Part shown: piece after piece, positions 2,324 to 28,740 of the stretch
How the letters are laid out: every line of letters starts with the position of its first letter
Numbering within the stretch: position 1 is the stretch's first letter
Virus record (IMG/VR): IMGVR_UViG_2734482533_000012
Source: a virus
Lineage: Duplodnaviria; Heunggongvirae; Uroviricota; Caudoviricetes
Direction: 5' to 3' (one strand)
Length of the DNA: 40,498 nucleotides
Position numbers and translations under genes: made by a program
Notes under the pieces: generated by a model
The model's input: only the letters and a program-made list of their open reading frames with translations
What the model was told of the DNA's origin: nothing
Database searches by the model: none

Positions 2324-5300
2324 TTAACATTCCCCCATCACGTCGCATATTTAACAGATTGCCCTGCACCCGCTGATCAACCATCCCCATAAGTGCTTTT
2401 ATTGCCTGAGGGCCAATCTCTCCATTCTGGCCGTCATTTTGAATAGTGATTTGGTATACAGGGGCATAGGTAATATCTCCGCCTCCATTACCACTTTTAC
2501 TATTAATAGCTCTGACACCAAGAGAACCATCGGAAGTTCGTGTTAATGGCATAATGGCTTCCGGTCCAGCCTCACCAAAAACACCAGCCCCTTTTGCAAA
2601 AGCAAAAAATTGCGGGGAATCATAAATACCGTTCGAATACGTGCTCAATGACGGAGACTCATAAACACCGCCCTTTGCATTCGGAATAAATTTACTAATA
2701 GCACTCCCGATAGTTCCTAAAATCCCCCCAGAAGAACTGTTACTAATGCTGTCGAAAATCCCAGTAATTGAAGCCTTTAATGCTATTCGACTAAGATCCG
2801 AAATCACGGAAGTAGCGAAAGAACGAAAATTTGCCTTGCCTGTCGTGACAAAATCACCCAGCGCATCGGTCATCCCATCAAACATCTGAGTCGTGGTTGA
2901 TTTTATCTGCTCACTGATATCCTTAGTGTCATCCAGCCAGTTATTGAATCCCTGGGAGGCACCACTAACCCAGTCTCCTGCCTGAATATCGAGCTGCTCG
3001 TTTTTCTGTCTGACAATTTCTTTTTCCCGTTCCAGAGCATCATTCAGAGCCTGCATTTTCTCTTGAAAAACATGATCTGACATTCCACGGGATTTATCTG
3101 CATAGTCACGTTCAAGTTGCAGACGCTGATTGTTATATCCATGTTCAATCCGCAGTAATTCCTGCTGGCGTTGCTGATTTTTATCGCCAACCCCATAACC
3201 AGCAATCTGAATATCATACCCCTGCTGACGATTATCAATCGAAGCCTGCAATGAATCACGCCATGCTGTTATTTCGGCGGATTCCTTGATTAGCCTGTTA
3301 TTTTTTTCAATCGCAACATTTTTCTCCATCAACGTGGTTATTTCTTCCCGGTGTAAGAGAAGCGATTTCTGATCCTGGGTTAATTTCGATGATGGTCGTG
3401 ACTCTAGGTCGGCAATCCGCTGACGCCACTTAACCAGTTCCTGTTCAGAGGAACTTAATTTAACGGTCAACTCAGCTTGTGAACTTAGTAACGCATTCTG
3501 TTGATTCAGATGATCAATCATTCGTTGGGCTGCATCATCAGAATAACCTTTCGCCTTTGGTTGCTTTGGATCTTTATAACGCTCATTTATTTGAGCGATA
3601 AGATTATTATATTCTTCCTTTGAATACTGATTCTTTAGCTTTTCCAGTTTTGCAAGTTCACTAGCTCTCTGCTGCTCCCGGGTCTGATATTGTTTTGAAA
3701 AGGCATCTGCTCTCTGTCTGAGTTCAATTCCTTCCTGTTGTCGCTTGTTGTAATCGTTTATTGATGAATTTAGTACGTCCTGAGCAATTTTTTCTGCTTG
3801 AAGTACGCCCAATTGCTGCTTTAATCGTGCCAGCCTTTTATTTTGAGCTCCGCCATCTCCAATGCCACCTAACCCGAAAACTCCGGGTCGGGTATTTTTT
3901 TCTATTTCATCAATTTGACGGAGAACATCTGAGATTTTTTGATCAAGGGAGGCCTCACGGCCAATATCCAGCATGGAATCCCATGCCCATTTTGCGGAGT
4001 CTGCGACAGCTTTCCATGCAGTCTCAAGATAACCAAGATTTTCTTTAATCTGGTTGGTGCGCTGGATCATTGAGGATGAGTATTCTTCTGTCGCAATGCG
4101 GGCGGCCTCCTGCTGGTTCCCTTCATCCTGTAGCGCCTTAATCTGGTTATAAGTCGCAAGTGTCAGAAAATGGTACTGATCATTAAGTTTTGATATGGCA
4201 CTGACAGGATCCTTTGCAATTTCATTGAAGTCATTAACCAGTTGTTCGGTTGATATTCCTGTTACTTCGCTCGTTTTTACTATCGCTGTCGTCACTTGCT
4301 CCAGCGAACTGCTCGCTACCTTTCCCGAACGCACAAGCTGATTTAATACTGCCGCCGCAGCACCAGTTGTCGAATCAGCCGCATTCCCGGCACGTTGAGC
4401 TATATCGCCCAATTGCCCGCTGGTTGTCCCCAACTGATTTCCGGTAAGAATAAGAGATTTATTAAATTCGTCCTGCTCCTGAGAGCCTTTATAGTAAGCC
4501 AGTCCTAAGACCCCAACGGCTGCTGCGGCCAGGGTAAAAGGATTAATTAATCCCAGCACATAAGAACCTACACCTTTGATCGCCGGGCCAATCCCACCGA
4601 ACATATCTTTTAGCTGGCCGCCCTGCTGCATTAACACCATAAATGGCGACTGACCAGTGGACAACCCAACAACAATATCCGTCATTTGTACAGGCAACAT
4701 GCGCATAGCAAAAGCCGTTTGTTTTGCCGACATTCCGGTTTTGCTTAATTGTGATTGAGTAACCTCAAGCTCACTCCGCATAGCACGAAGTTTTCCAGAA
4801 AGCTCCTCATACATTTCAGGAGAAAGCATCCCCTTAGCTTTTGCTTCATTGAGCTGTTTCTGTTGTTCTACCAGACGATTAAAAGCAGTTCCGACAGGAT
4901 CAAGTTGAGCAATCAGACGTTGCAAAGCAACAACCTGTTCATCATGCGCTTTTGCTGCTTCTCGCTCTGCCTGAGCCTCTCCGGTAAGCTCTCGCCGTGT
5001 TTCCTGTATTTTTCGGCTATAATTCTCAAACTGAGAACCATTTATTTTCCCGGATGCAAACGCAGCATTAAGTTCATCATGCTGTTGTTCAAGATTTCTT
5101 AGCGCCGCAGCCAGAGGGTCGATCTTGTCCAGCATTCTTTGAAAGGCCTGAGCCTGCGCTTCCTGCTGGGCGGCAGCAAGTTTTCCGGCCTTCTCGGCTT
5201 CTCTCTGCGCTTGCGCAACCCCGCTCAATTCCTCTGTGGTTTCATTAAGTTTACGGACAAGAAATTCATATTCTTCTTTATCAATAAGCCCTTTATCGAA

Positions 5301-23904: not shown

Positions 23905-24191
23905 AAATGACCTTTCTTTCTCCAGATTTCTTGTGTGCGAAAAACCCCTTCAGCATGCATCAGGCGCAATTCTTCTTTGGTGTAATCGCTGGTTTTTACC
24001 CGCCCGTCGATTAGATCGTGGCATGAGCTACAGGCTATCGCCGCCTGCATATCATGTGGTTTTGTCGCTGTTCCGCACGTCCCCGCCAGCCTGTAATGCG
24101 CCAGCACAGAGGTTTCGGGATTGTGATTGCAGTAGCCAGGGATTCTGATCTGGCACATCTGGCCTTTAGCCGCTTTACGTAAATTCACCAT
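23901..24191 (-). CDS. ybcO: YbcO-like protein (DUF1364, Cys-rich putative nuclease)
   Basis: 96 aa with ...CQIRIPGYCN..NPETSVLAH.RL.G.CGT.TKP.D..A.IACSSCHD..D... resembling DLP12 YbcO from memory. Confidence 0.6.
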   Translation of the reverse strand: MVNLRKAAKGQMCQIRIPGYCNHNPETSVLAHYRLAGTCGTATKPHDMQAAIACSSCHDLIDGRVKTSDYTKEELRLMHAEGVFRTQEIWRKKGHL

Positions 24192-24790
24192 TACGCAAAC
24201 TCCAGTAGTTGTGCGGCCACATTTTCAACTTCCTCCTGAGAGGAGAATTTACGGAACAGAATCCAGTTCCACAGCACATTCAGTACAGATTTATAAACCT
24301 GCTGAAACTCGACTTCGTCCATATTCGCAAAAGCGATGGATTTTGCCCGACGCCCACGGCTACCGTCCGGATAAATATGCTCGGTGTAAAATCCGGCCTG
24401 AATGGTTACCCACTCGCGGAAAGCCTCAAACGACTTTAGCAACGCCGTATCCCGGGTTCTACGAGTCGCAACGGTGTTAAGGTATTGCTCTGCGGCATCA
24501 CTCAGGGCTGGCGTGTGTTCCCGACCAACTGATTCGCACAGGTAATCAACGAAACCAGACAGCAGTTCTCGTTCGCGAGGCGTGATCGCCCCACCGACCG
24601 GAGTCCAGTAATCGAATCCCAGTTGCAGGAGTTTGAAAAAACGCTTGTGGAATGCGTAGTTACGCACACGCTTAAAGTCTGCGTGTATCCACTCACCTAT
24701 TTTGATTTGATGCAGAAAATCGCAACTCTCCGGCGTCGCCGGGAGAAGTAAACCAGAAGAGGTTTGTTTGACCAGTTGTATATGCGCCAT
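24191..24790 (-). CDS. Hypothetical nin-region phage protein (199 aa)
   Basis: ORF with phage-backbone GC content, co-directional with and overlapping the ybcO-like gene. Confidence 0.5.
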   Translation of the reverse strand: MAHIQLVKQTSSGLLLPATPESCDFLHQIKIGEWIHADFKRVRNYAFHKRFFKLLQLGFDYWTPVGGAITPRERELLSGFVDYLCESVGREHTPALSDAAEQYLNTVATRRTRDTALLKSFEAFREWVTIQAGFYTEHIYPDGSRGRRAKSIAFANMDEVEFQQVYKSVLNVLWNWILFRKFSSQEEVENVAAQLLEFA

Positions 24791-25603
24791 TTCTCAATCT
24801 CTCGATGGCGCAGCGCAGCAGATGCCAGTTGTTCAGGCTGACGAATAAAGTATAAATAAACTGGCTATGGTGTAAAGCCCCACATAGCATGAACAAACAC
24901 TACATATCAAATAGCTGGTACAAGGATAGAAATACGACACTTATTATTAAAAACGATTAGATAAATTACATTTTAATGTTATGCAAAAGTTCTTTTTTAT
25001 CATAACATTTCAATAAAAGCATTACAGATGCAATCATCCCGTCATCATCAATTATTTAAGGTGGTTAAACATGGAAAATAACAAGTTCGCACATCTCGCT
25101 CCTTTTTTATCCGTAATCCTTTTCGCTTGTTGTTTTATATGGGCATTATTTTTATAAAGTAGCCACATGATAAGTTGCTGGAATCATATTTCCCACTCAA
25201 GTCATTAACATTTGATAAGATATATCTAAAAGGACGCCTTTACATTATTTATGCGTATATAATTTATTTATATACACAGTAAAGGTATCCTGGGAAAATA
25301 TTTATCGTTAAAAAATACATCATAAATAATTAAGCTGAAATTTCAGAACACAACTAATACACACAATAAGGTTCAGTAACAGTAATCTATGTGGACTACA
25401 TCGAGATTTTTTGATTAAACTTTAATAACTTATTCCTAACACACAGAATGCATAAACTAAAAGTAAAACAAATAGTTATACGAAAAACAACCATATTTAT
25501 TCTATCTTCTCCTCTAATCAACATATCAATTATGTGTTTCATAACAGCTTGACATAACCCTCCAAAAGATGCATTTTTAATGCATGTTTTGGAGGAGGTG
25601 GTT

Positions 25604-25942
25604 ATGACACACAAGAGAATTCCTAAAGATTGGGTAATCAAACGCTCAACTCCGTTCTTCACAAAAGAGAACGTACCTTCAGCGTTATTAACACATCATA
25701 ATACAGCAGCAGGTGTTTTTGGGCAGTTGTGCGTAATGGAAGGCACTGTAACATATTATGGTTTTACTGATGAGAATGCTACTGAACCGGAGATAAAAGT
25801 AGTCATTAATGCTGGCGCTTTTGCAACAAGCCCACCACAATACTGGCACCGTGTTGAACTAAGCGATGATGCTCAGTTTAATATTAACTTTTGGGTCGCT
25901 CCAGACTTTTCGGGCGAAAAAGTCTATAGCACCAAAAAATAG
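25604..25942 (+). CDS. YeaR-like DUF1971 protein (TehB N-terminal domain-like)
   Basis: 112 aa from ATG with a strong GGAGGAGGTG ribosome-binding site; ...RSTPFFTKENVPSALLTHHNTAAGVFGQLCVMEGTVTYYGFTDE...QYWHRVE...FNINFWVAP resembles E. coli YeaR from memory. Opposite strand to the surrounding phage genes, in an AT-rich island. Confidence 0.65.
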   Translation: MTHKRIPKDWVIKRSTPFFTKENVPSALLTHHNTAAGVFGQLCVMEGTVTYYGFTDENATEPEIKVVINAGAFATSPPQYWHRVELSDDAQFNINFWVAPDFSGEKVYSTKK

Positions 25943-25971
25943 ATGATCATATTAAAAATGCTTTAACAGTC

Positions 25972-26009
25972 AGACCCGGCAGGGCTATCCCCGACGGGTC
26001 TCATTTTTG
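25972..26009 (+). terminator. Intrinsic terminator after the yeaR-like gene
   Basis: AGACCCGGCAGGGCTATCCCCGACGGGTCT hairpin followed by CATTTTTG, about 30 bp after the stop. Confidence 0.5.
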
Positions 26010-26562
26010 TAAATATATTGGTTCTACATTGACAGGAGACTTCAACCATAAGAAGTAATCTGAATACTTGAGCAATAAATTTACTTAAGATTAATGAGCG
26101 CACCTTGCCGGACAAAGATAAACCAAGGTAACACCTTTTTTCTAGCCAGTATGTAATCAATCAGAAAGCCGCTCCATAAGAACAACAGCAAGACAATAAA
26201 TTGCCATTACAGCCGCAATAGCCAGCGCACATTTGAGAACCAGCACGACAACCCCCTGTATTAGACGCACACCAGTCCTGATAAATATGAGGCTGTCTCG
26301 TCAGTGATTCAATACAACTATTGGGTATAGTTTCTGTGATTTTATTCTGTAGAAATGGAACACAACAACCAGTCACCACCAGCACTTCCTTAAATGCTCT
26401 AAGTCAGAAACAAGCCAACATTTTAGTCCGCTTTGAGCGATCTGCAGACATTGCTAGCAGCCTTCTGTGTGAATTCTCAGGGAGCAGGTCGGCATAGCAT
26501 CACGTTGAGGCTCTTACCCTACTTGTTCACACCAACCCTAACTCCACAGACTGATTCATAAA

Positions 26563-27564
26563 TTAGTAATCTGCGTGTTTCGCACTTTTCAGAAATGCTT
26601 TCATATTTTCATTAGGTCGCTCAATTTCGAAGTTACTTCCATATAACTCTTGTAATTTTGGCCATAACTTACTTAATAACCCTCTCCTGCGATAAAATGG
26701 ATGTATCCAAACGGTAGATAGGTACGGAGAATTTGCATTTGAATTGTTTATTGTGACCAGCCCAACTAAACATTGTCGATAACCACTATTATCCATTGAT
26801 TGTATTTCTTCGACGAATGGATACGCGATTACATCAGTCCAACCATGATCGGTTGTATCCCATTGCATTCCGTCATGACATTCCTTCGACTGATAGCGGC
26901 GTAAAGCTACACACGCGAGCTTTTGCCAATCTGGAGAATTAATTGTGATCTCTTCATCGTATGACGCGCCTATTGGAGCGGGTATTGGTCTGATTAATCC
27001 AGCATGGCATTCATCATAGAACTTCATGTTTCCCTCAGAAACGTTGTGTACGTTGGGTTGCTCCATGTGTGCGCCATTCAAAAATAGCTCTGATAGTAGT
27101 GTATCTACACTGTAATCTTTATTGATTATTGTCGGCTTAGAGTTTTTCTTATTAAGGCCGCGAGTAACGATTTTTTGATCAATGTTAACAACATGGAATA
27201 ATCCGTCGGGGAGGCTAGCGAACCACGATGGGGCATCGGACCAGAATAGCATGCCTTTTGTACTTCTTAAGAGTTTAATTAAGTTAATACAAGCTTCTTC
27301 ACTAGTCTTGCCGTTGATGCGAAGTATGTTAGGACTAAAGTAATATTCATCCATATCAGGGAATGCAGCTTCGCAAAACTCCTGTACATAATTTAGCACC
27401 TGGATTCTACAGAGATCATCATAGCTGGTAATAACTAAGGGGGTATCTTCATTACTATTATGATTATCAATAATGCAATCTATAGCGAGACTTACTGCTT
27501 TGCGTATCACTTCAGTTGAATCTAACGACTCTAAAAATTTTGTCTTTCGTGTGCGAATATCCAT
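26563..27564 (-). CDS. Hypothetical protein B (333 aa), second gene of the AT-rich accessory operon; weak GNAT-like C-terminal motif
   Basis: ORF 15 bp downstream of gene A; C-terminal ...YLSTVWIHPFYRRRGLLSKLWPKL... loosely resembles GNAT motif A; no recognisable phage function. Confidence 0.6.
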   Translation of the reverse strand: MDIRTRKTKFLESLDSTEVIRKAVSLAIDCIIDNHNSNEDTPLVITSYDDLCRIQVLNYVQEFCEAAFPDMDEYYFSPNILRINGKTSEEACINLIKLLRSTKGMLFWSDAPSWFASLPDGLFHVVNIDQKIVTRGLNKKNSKPTIINKDYSVDTLLSELFLNGAHMEQPNVHNVSEGNMKFYDECHAGLIRPIPAPIGASYDEEITINSPDWQKLACVALRRYQSKECHDGMQWDTTDHGWTDVIAYPFVEEIQSMDNSGYRQCLVGLVTINNSNANSPYLSTVWIHPFYRRRGLLSKLWPKLQELYGSNFEIERPNENMKAFLKSAKHADY

Positions 27565-27579
27565 GTATGACCTGCGCTA

Positions 27580-28602
27580 TTAAAATTCATGAATGAACGG
27601 TTTGTCATCTGGTTGCAAAATGGTGGTTTTATTCGTTGCTACATTTAAACTGTTGTAGAGCATAATTGCCAGGTTCGATGCATTTTCAATCAGCGTTTCA
27701 AGATCCTGGTCTGTAATCACTACGAGGTTCCCTTCTTTATCCTTTCCACCACGATGCACTAAGTGATTTCGATTGAGGGTTGCCAATTCAATAGCTTCTA
27801 TCGGACAGTCTTTTTGTACTTTTATATCGAATGTAGCTTCATAGCGGTCGATTACCTTTTTAGTGCTATGCCAGCTTGCACTGATCAAGTGTTCCTTGAT
27901 TGACCTGATTAGCTCTCCCCTAATTTTCTCGATGGGTTCACCCTTGAAAGGCAACGCAGCAATATCTTTGCTTACTTTAAATTCAGTCTTACCTTTTTCT
28001 ATACAATTGGCTATGTAGACATCATCTTTCTCTATAGAATTAATGAATAGCTCAACATAAAGCGTTTCCAAAGCTGTAATAACATTCGTGTAGAGCAAAC
28101 TAAGCAAGTGGTTTTTTTGCTGTTGTTCAGTTTTATCTTTTGCAAGTTTTTTTATTTTATCGATATTATCAATGAATTTTAAATACGGATTACCGGAAGA
28201 CGTTACAGCGTCGTAGATATCATCATCGTACCAATCATCTATATTATTTGAGTTTCCAGACCAGTCAAAACATTGTGTTTGTAATTCATCTACTAATTCC
28301 TCAATATACTCAGATTTAACATATTGACCGAAGATGGATTGTAGTTCTTCGCTCGCATCATACGGCCCGCCATATATGTAAGCATAGCCACCTTCTCTAC
28401 TTTCATACGGACAAGCATTTGCCGGATCTTCAAAGTTTTCAAAGAACCAGTTTTTCATTACTTCGAGTTGATCTTTTTTGCTTATGTATTTTAAAGATTT
28501 TAGTGGAACTTTCTTTCCATTAACCTCGAAAACAATTTTCACGATGTAACGCTCCCTTGTATCAATTGCGCAACTATTATACCACAGCGAAATACAGGGC
28601 AT
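27580..28602 (-). CDS. Hypothetical protein A (341 aa), first gene of the AT-rich accessory operon; C-terminal Rx4H (HEPN-like) motif
   Basis: Start at ATG 28602 (MPCISLWYN...) with a perfect AAGGAGG ribosome-binding site 6 nt upstream; contains ...ATLNRNHLVHRGG... (R-N-x3-H); AT-rich relative to flanking genes. Confidence 0.6.
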   Translation of the reverse strand: MPCISLWYNSCAIDTRERYIVKIVFEVNGKKVPLKSLKYISKKDQLEVMKNWFFENFEDPANACPYESREGGYAYIYGGPYDASEELQSIFGQYVKSEYIEELVDELQTQCFDWSGNSNNIDDWYDDDIYDAVTSSGNPYLKFIDNIDKIKKLAKDKTEQQQKNHLLSLLYTNVITALETLYVELFINSIEKDDVYIANCIEKGKTEFKVSKDIAALPFKGEPIEKIRGELIRSIKEHLISASWHSTKKVIDRYEATFDIKVQKDCPIEAIELATLNRNHLVHRGGKDKEGNLVVITDQDLETLIENASNLAIMLYNSLNVATNKTTILQPDDKPFIHEF

Positions 28603-28740
28603 AACCTGCCTCCTTAAACTAACATACCATGAGCCAGCAATGTCCGCTATTGGCACAAAGCGGACAACCACGCTAGCTCTCCCCTGTGCCAGAAAAATGT
28701 CAATTTACATATGAACTAATGCTCTTTGATCTAGTAACGT

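Follow-up and report, generated by a model that had tools for sequence, protein, structure and literature searches.

Does a 28-codon open reading frame in the intergenic DNA of an E. coli prophage encode a peptide that the bacterium or its phage has kept, and if so, what kind of peptide is it? The window, the whole stretch of 40,498 nucleotides analysed here, is a complete lambdoid/Rac-type E. coli prophage. The frame, hereafter the smORF, had been described in an original prediction as an unannotated gene for a single hydrophobic helix, with a strong ribosome-binding site in an AT-rich island, and as either a type I toxin or a small membrane regulator. The sequence agrees with the ATG at 25071 and the 28 codons that it opens, which encode MENNKFAHLAPFLSVILFACCFIWALFL and are followed by TAA at 25155-25157, and AAGGTGG does precede the start codon at the right spacing (25058-25064). 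The island is likewise real, as the G+C content of 0.286 in 25001-25500 is the lowest of any 500-nt bin of the window, against ~0.41-0.44 in the neighbouring bins and ~0.44-0.51 in the nin/Q genes on the left. The product consists of a polar 9-residue head that starts MENNK, followed by a 19-residue hydrophobic segment reaching the C-terminus; no charged residue lies beyond position 5, and the mean Kyte-Doolittle hydropathy of residues 10-28 is 2.46. To the left of the smORF, all on the - strand, are a DUF1367 gene (24191-24790), a DUF1364 gene, a Q-like DUF1133 gene and lysis genes, and to the right are a DUF1971 gene (25604-25942, + strand), two - strand genes of unknown function, DUF977 and the replication genes. 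This gene order places the smORF between the replication and nin/Q modules, directed against phage early-right transcription. Several ORFs of 20-38 codons occur within the same 800 nt, and a frame of 28 codons is thus by itself not above chance; since a short ORF in AT-rich DNA means little alone, the question becomes a comparative one.

Three sets of loci bear on whether the frame is kept. The first, 88 loci found by peptide words, has the frame intact in 88/88 and is biased by that ascertainment. The second was found independently of the ORF, with an exact IUPAC pattern for a conserved non-coding block ~90-130 nt 5' of the ATG, and the 28-codon frame is intact in each of the 118 loci with sufficient sequence (118/118). 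The third was reached through the neighbouring DUF1367 protein; 53 of its 75 loci with upstream sequence carry the cassette to which the smORF belongs, and the frame is intact in 51/51 of those with sufficient sequence. In all 169 loci (118 + 51) that were found without recourse to the peptide, the frame is therefore unbroken. The original prediction had itself named loss of the frame in homologous regions as a finding that would count against it, and no such loss was seen in either of these two sets. No indels occur in the 87-nt ORF across loci, whereas the adjacent 5' spacer is gapped and ~50% identical. The peptide exists in at least 15 variants, every one of 28 residues, in which M1, E2, N3, N4, H8, P11, L13, C21, W24 and the terminal FL vary little or not at all. 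Nearly every replacement within residues 10-28 exchanges one hydrophobic residue for another (A, V, I, L, F or C), and mean hydropathy stays at 2.46-2.62 in all 15+ variants.

The pattern of nucleotide change points the same way. Among 20 distinct ORF haplotypes there are 33 variable sites, distributed 6:10:17 over codon positions 1:2:3, and a minimum spanning tree places 52 substitutions, of which 25 are synonymous. The dN/dS is 0.27 in the smORF frame and 0.60-1.09 in four of the other five; the remaining one, the phase-matched antisense frame, has 0.34, the mirror effect that is to be expected there. When the same base changes were placed on the same tree at random positions (5000 runs), synonymous changes averaged 13.3 (sd 3.0), a count as high as the observed 25 came up in 0.06% of runs (P = 0.0006), and all haplotypes stayed intact in 0.7% (P = 0.007); these figures are approximations from a minimum spanning tree of 20 haplotypes in a recombining population. 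A 38-codon ORF that overlaps the smORF on the opposite strand was considered as a gene and rejected: clade 2, a third lineage (L046) and the L002 group all have stop codons within it, and it is therefore not the selected frame. As judged from these alignments, the frame, length and hydrophobic character of the smORF are held by purifying selection across lineages. We consider it very probable that the smORF is a real, selected gene, absent from annotation, whose product is a peptide with a single hydrophobic helix; this core of the original prediction, a missed small gene, draws its support from both frame conservation and substitution pattern.

The gene is common and has gone unrecorded. A query of 301 nt around the smORF matches 1175 of 5426 complete E. 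coli genomes (~22%, ~1 in 5). Some 464 of these match at ≥90% identity over the full length, and ~708 match at only 72-75%, over query positions 1-199, the match ending at the stop codon. Strains NCTC9066 and LD39-1 are identical to the window over an 821-nt query (24800-25620), and lineages of the smORF differ by ~20% within the ORF. In a scan of one genome per bacterial species, the only carriers were Shigella flexneri and Escherichia ruysiae, and two matches in a plasmid collection were mislabelled E. coli chromosomes; across these scans the cassette was found in Escherichia and Shigella only. No annotated feature lies under the match in 60 records sampled across the ranking of E. coli matches, and none is listed at the smORF in the RefSeq/GenBank records of four sequenced E. 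coli phages that carry the cassette, so that the frame was unannotated, as originally claimed, in every record checked. The gene is missing because it has only 28 codons and gene callers drop ORFs of fewer than 30. The five commonest peptide variants have no exact match in a collection of ~15 billion predicted proteins, and a full-text literature search for the peptide strings returned no paper. At E <= 10, neither Pfam nor NCBIfam contains a match to the peptide, apart from one spurious weak NCBIfam match of the clade-2 variant to a Borrelia lipoprotein family (E 0.031; 14.4 bits against a 35-bit cut-off). PHROGs gave chance-level weak matches only (E 0.11-0.24), PADLOC gave none, and an Rfam scan of 24700-25700 at E <= 10 was likewise empty. 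A lipoprotein reading, based on the lipobox-like LFAC, was rejected, as clade 2 has FVLC in place of the motif and the Borrelia-family match lies far below its cut-off.

Comparison of lineages delimits the unit in which the gene travels (Table 1). The upstream block is more conserved between lineages than the smORF itself, and this conservation exceeds the needs of a simple promoter. It is present as a single copy in the window, and a role as a repeated operator was rejected since no copies occur elsewhere in the prophage; tandem repeats or paralogues were also not found in the window. In the third lineage, the cassette adjoins a tail-fibre-like gene and its left flank is unrelated up to ~24938; downstream, no other lineage has a flank related to that of the window. 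The right-hand junction of homology falls 1-2 nt past the stop codon in four independent downstream contexts, which is expected if recombinants that truncate the gene are removed. Recombination junctions thus respect the smORF stop codon.

Table 1. Features in and around the smORF cassette (window positions), with the identity of the window to diverged lineages and the presence of alignment gaps.
Feature	Position	Strand	Basis or reading	Identity	Gaps
Minimal common cassette, 218 nt	24941..25158	+	Homology among three lineages, block start to 1-2 nt past stop		
Conserved non-coding block TTATTATTAAAAACGATTAGATAAATTACATTTTAATGTTATG	24941..24983		Presumed promoter/operator and 5' end of smORF transcript	85-91% (measured over 24935-24983)	none
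Candidate promoter TTATTA-17-TACATT	-35 24944-24949, -10 24967-24972	+	Weak match		
Alternative candidate -10 TATTAT	24942-24947	+	Weak match		
Inverted repeat AATGTTATG / CATAACATT	24975-24983 / 25001-25009	+	Variable 17-nt loop; candidate stem-loop		
Inverted-repeat loop and 3' arm	24984-25009			53-57%	none
Spacer	25010-25055			50-56%	present
Shine-Dalgarno-like AAGGTGG	25058..25064	+	6 nt 5' of ATG; TAAGG core conserved in clade 1, clade 2b and L046	73-80% (SD region)	none
smORF, 28-residue product MENNKFAHLAPFLSVILFACCFIWALFL	25071..25157 (stop included)	+	Sequence, intact frames, dN/dS, randomisation	79-82%	none
80 nt after smORF			Unrelated	21-35%	present
Antisense 38-codon ORF overlapping smORF	25052..25168	-	Rejected as gene		
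Promoter-like TTTACA-16-TATACT	24849..24876	-	5' of DUF1367 gene, divergent from smORF; neighbour, not necessarily part of cassette		

The signals that would express the gene are less clear-cut. No sigma-70-type promoter on the + strand passes a consensus scan of 24700-25700, and the three promoter-like hits on the - strand are no more than shuffled sequences give. A position-weight scan across lineages returned weak AT-rich candidates only, all within the block, which may act as the promoter; TTATTA-17-TACATT would place a transcription start on the 5' arm of the inverted repeat. All 8 of 8 pairs of this repeat are kept in 16 diverse sequences, with changes, read on the + strand, only from G-C to G-U and from U-A to U-G. 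It forms a modest hairpin (-5 to -9 kcal/mol, z -2.8 to -5.4) that folds on either strand, and it is possibly a 5'-terminal stem-loop of the smORF mRNA. The putative whole transcript shows no unusual degree of structure, with a fold z of -0.5 in the window and -2.1 in a clade-2 locus, to which a terminator contributes. RNAalifold pairs the Shine-Dalgarno sequence with CUCCUU (codons 10-12) in a weak fold (-8.9 kcal/mol in total), and this helix is missing from the minimum-free-energy folds of single sequences. A fold that sequesters the ribosome-binding site, or a global mRNA structure, accordingly found no support, given the z of -0.5 and the lack of conserved Shine-Dalgarno pairing in single-sequence folds. 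The ribosome-binding site itself bears out its description as strong in the window and in most lineages, which share the TAAGG core; the description fails for clade 2a, the commonest diverged lineage, where the site is degraded to TAAAGTGAG.

Downstream, no + strand terminator is called 3' of the smORF in the window. In clade 2, a G+C-rich hairpin lies 25-30 nt past the stop codon (CCCGCCGAAGCGGG, positions 4218-4235 of locus L004; the version in L005 is CCCGCTACAGCGGG, 4101-4134). This hairpin is terminator-like on the + strand in L005 and is called on the - strand only in L004, and it appears to terminate transcription from both sides, that of the smORF and that of the convergent hokD or iteS. 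The Qin prophage of K-12 retains the hairpin with hokD and without the smORF. On the left side, the divergent promoter-like TTTACA-16-TATACT is found in clades 1 and 2, ahead of both left contexts, and is absent in the third lineage. It lies ~60 nt 5' of the first nin-region gene, DUF1367 or rem-like (L004 3897-3924, L005 3787-3814), and could give pR-independent expression of the DUF1367-DUF1364-Q operon.

Two main left contexts hold the cassette, the DUF1367 operon and a rem-like/ydfU operon, and what follows the stop codon directly depends on the prophage: DUF1971 in the window, and elsewhere hokD, IteAS, IS elements or other large proteins. In clade 2, hokD is convergent with the smORF and has the hairpin terminator in common with it. 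Other cargo comprises an S8 peptidase/ATPase pair, named the IteS/IteA anti-phage system by RefSeq and for which a literature search returned unrelated papers only, and an AAA-ATPase with an RloB-like protein. The interval from the smORF stop to the DUF977 and replication genes (25158-28700 in the window) is a variable hotspot (L003, L004, L005, L008, L092, L102, L155 and L289), whose contents also include AbiH and a 689-aa ATPase-like protein. Within it, the two - strand proteins of the window (26563-27564 and 27580-28671) have weak, sub-threshold Pfam matches, to a C-terminal GNAT acetyltransferase motif and to a HEPN/RES N-terminal domain 1, and none in PADLOC; together they may form a defence or toxin pair of two genes that has not been described before. 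A partner for the smORF peptide is not suggested by any conserved neighbour, and the downstream cargo varies.

Nor is the cassette always present. Among the 75 DUF1367-anchored loci, 22 that are otherwise near-identical are without it and have hok-like or other genes directly adjacent, and the Qin prophage of K-12 is without it as well. Being present or absent in this way, the cassette is optional; this speaks against its having control of the leftward operon and agrees with how a phage moron is defined (PMC3594210). Cassettes of hok occur with or without the smORF, and the reverse, K-12 Qin being a case of hokD without it. A clean deletion of the cassette from K-12 Qin was considered and rejected, because the homology with K-12 does not begin before the hokD terminator and the rem genes are different. 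In E. coli F2_81, the block and the smORF are separated by an inserted IS3-family element (L289 1737-2950); this insertion parts the ORF and its Shine-Dalgarno sequence from the presumed promoter and is a natural knock-down allele.

We favor the interpretation, at a probability of roughly 0.55, that the smORF is a translated gene of an optional, moron-like cassette and that its product is a single-pass inner-membrane peptide rather than one half of a classical toxin-antitoxin system. This cassette is found in Rac/Qin-type lambdoid prophages of Escherichia and Shigella, where it is encoded on the strand opposite the phage early-right genes and borders, on the left, a slot for accessory or defence cargo. 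Transcription would proceed rightward from the conserved AT-rich block, probably starting at or near the conserved stem-loop, to give a 5' UTR of ~95-115 nt, and the smORF would then be translated from its AAGG-type ribosome-binding site. Residues 10-28 of the product are predicted to insert into the inner membrane as one helix, and its polar MENNK head would most likely lie in the cytoplasm. It would most likely be a moron-like small membrane protein made from the prophage, and its target may be the membrane or a host or phage membrane protein, for example through modulation of a transporter or receptor, or through exclusion.

Morons are independent transcription units inserted between phage genes (PMC3594210), and the likeness extends to several features. 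The cassette is present or absent between syntenic prophages, inserted between conserved genes (53/75 against 22/75); its base composition differs from that of its surroundings (G+C 0.286 against ~0.44-0.51 in the nin/Q genes); and it opposes the surrounding operon, in a region of accessory genes, with a terminator-like hairpin on the + strand in L005, the one in L004 being called on the - strand only. It differs in that a promoter for the smORF can be proposed only by inference and that no + strand terminator follows it in the window, and the morons known to date are mostly larger proteins whose host phenotype has been demonstrated. The smORF product resembles the small single-pass inner-membrane regulators of E. 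coli, such as MgrB, AcrZ, MgtS and PmrR, in size class, in its single predicted transmembrane helix and in being encoded by a stand-alone gene with its own ribosome-binding site. DicB, a small prophage protein, modulates inner-membrane proteins and protects against phage (PMC6832061), although it is cytoplasmic and unrelated in sequence to the smORF peptide.

The gene is an addition to the under-counted small membrane proteins of prophages, present in ~22% of complete E. coli genomes, and it forms a fixed left border to a slot with anti-phage and toxin cargo (IteAS, AbiH, hokD), for the mining of which it offers a landmark. Were its product a modulator of a membrane protein, it would be a new prophage-encoded regulator. 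The peptide is new and without a family, and yet it is of a kind already familiar and will not surprise specialists in small proteins; the upstream block is the most interesting loose end. As strains identical to the window over 24800-25620 are in culture collections, the smORF is cheaply testable.

The alternative that survives best is that the cassette is a type I toxin-antitoxin module, in which the smORF would encode a membrane-damaging toxin and the block a divergent antitoxin sRNA on the - strand; we hold this to be rather unlikely. The sRNA would use the -10 sequence TATGAT (25004..24999), in the 3' arm of the inverted repeat, and at ~55-65 nt it would overlap the 5' end of the toxin mRNA and block its translation or trigger its decay, in a layout likened to zorO/orzO, tisB/istR-1 and ldr/rdl by which the prophage would be stabilised or infection aborted. 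A hydrophobic peptide of fewer than 60 residues with one predicted transmembrane helix and conserved cysteines is indeed typical of type I toxins (PMC8309996). The strongest hint comes from the block, whose conservation exceeds that of the ORF, a pattern to be expected under constraint on both strands. A - strand -10-like TATGAT or TATGGT occurs at the same position in all lineages, and at the left end of the block the - strand can fold into a hairpin, CRYUU-UUAAUAAU-AAGYG, with a U-rich tail behind it. This hairpin is called terminator-like by the scan in clade 2, and its pair types (GC/GU/AU and CG/UG/UA) fit the - strand only. Another type I toxin gene, hokD, is often in the neighbourhood.

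The covariation score of the - strand hairpin is reached by 168 of 500 shuffles and is not significant, and its stem has just one G-C pair in the window. The original prediction had proposed a search for an antisense sRNA promoter overlapping the ORF, and the promoter-like hits obtained are at the level of shuffled sequences, as are the terminator hits. A conserved cis structure sequestering the ribosome-binding site, as type I systems have, did not appear in single-sequence folds, in keeping with the whole-transcript z of -0.5. The cassette has no Rfam, Pfam or NCBIfam match to toxin or antitoxin families, and the peptide does not belong to the Hok, Ldr/Fst, Ibs, ShoB, TisB, ZorO or DinQ families in searches of Pfam, NCBIfam, PHROGs and PADLOC. 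Its C-terminus is uncharged, unlike that of most type I toxins, with IbsC, ShoB and DinQ as exceptions (PMC8309996), and the window contains neither tandem repeats nor paralogues. Moreover, F2_81 tolerates IS3 between block and ORF, which would be harmful if the block were the antitoxin, unless the toxin promoter was removed at the same time. The type I label attached to this peptide thus finds no above-chance antisense promoter or terminator, no fold over the ribosome-binding site and no family match in its favor.

Comparison with individual type I systems is instructive in both directions. The smORF peptide is like IbsC (19 aa) and ShoB (26 aa) in being very short and essentially one hydrophobic helix without a basic C-terminal tail, and in being encoded in accessory DNA by a gene that annotation pipelines overlooked. 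Ibs/Sib and ShoB/OhsC have experimentally defined antisense or divergent sRNAs, Rfam families and chromosomal repeats, whereas the smORF has a candidate sRNA only, no Rfam or protein-family match and a single copy in the prophage. ZorO of the zorO-orzO locus in E. coli O157:H7 is a membrane peptide of 29 aa, and the locus has a long 5' UTR overlapped by a divergently transcribed sRNA (PMC3919570). This is the layout that would be proposed for the block, and zorO-orzO has a similarly narrow distribution in Escherichia. ZorO is reported to be amphipathic, with charged residues that matter for its toxicity (PMC9860968). The smORF peptide, in contrast, is uncharged after position 5 and has no sequence similarity to ZorO, and its sRNA is hypothetical, with a hairpin that is not statistically supported. 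Like the smORF, hok-sok loci contain a gene for a small membrane peptide and occupy the same prophage slot, where hokD is the immediate convergent neighbour of the smORF in clade 2 and terminates at the same hairpin, although the two have no sequence relation. On the weak grounds of composition and context, we favor a membrane-accessory or regulatory role over that of a classical type I toxin, and the other option of the original prediction, a small membrane regulator, fits at least as well as the toxin. That the cassette represents a previously unrecognised type I family, with an uncharged 28-aa toxin and a divergent sRNA of ~55-65 nt, encoded by the block across the toxin's promoter and 5' UTR, the pair acting as a "gatekeeper" at the edge of the cargo slot, is unlikely in our judgement. 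If it does, a fixed gatekeeper would stabilise the prophage or trigger abortive infection, and a true toxin with an RNA antitoxin would found a new type I family.

It is less likely again that the smORF is not translated and that the sequence acts as RNA or DNA, whether as an sRNA, in control of the DUF1367-Q operon or as a recombination anchor, with the frame incidental; we regard this as improbable. The non-coding part is the most conserved portion of the cassette, AT-rich DNA gives many short ORFs and the ribosome-binding site is weak in clade 2a, all of which would suit such a role. Yet the concentration of synonymous changes is specific to the smORF frame, this frame is never broken in the 169 peptide-independent loci, and its replacements keep hydrophobicity. 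The absence of indels from 87 nt set beside a spacer that has them, and the lack of significant RNA structure over the ORF, argue likewise for a translated product, and the many prophages that have the same leftward operon without the cassette indicate that it is not needed for that operon.

Finally, a leader peptide or uORF controlling the DUF1971 gene, which begins 446 nt downstream on the same strand with no + strand terminator called between the two and with a strong SD-containing leader hairpin of its own, is very improbable. Known attenuators have a much shorter gap; each lineage has a different gene downstream of the smORF, in most cases on the opposite strand, and no downstream partner is conserved; other lineages have unrelated opposite-strand cargo at once (hokD, IteS), and L005 has a + strand terminator-like hairpin after the smORF. 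The DUF1971 leader hairpin deserves mention for its own sake. It has the form CCUCCAAAAGAUGCAU-uuuua-AUGCAUGUUUUGGAGG (25559-25597, + strand) ahead of the DUF1971 ATG at 25604, with its 3' arm within the ribosome-binding stretch GGAGGAGGTGG and an anti-SD-like CCUCC in its 5' arm. The 86-nt fold has an energy of -28.9 kcal/mol (z = -5.6), and the hairpin looks like a translational switch for this TehB-N-terminal-like gene.
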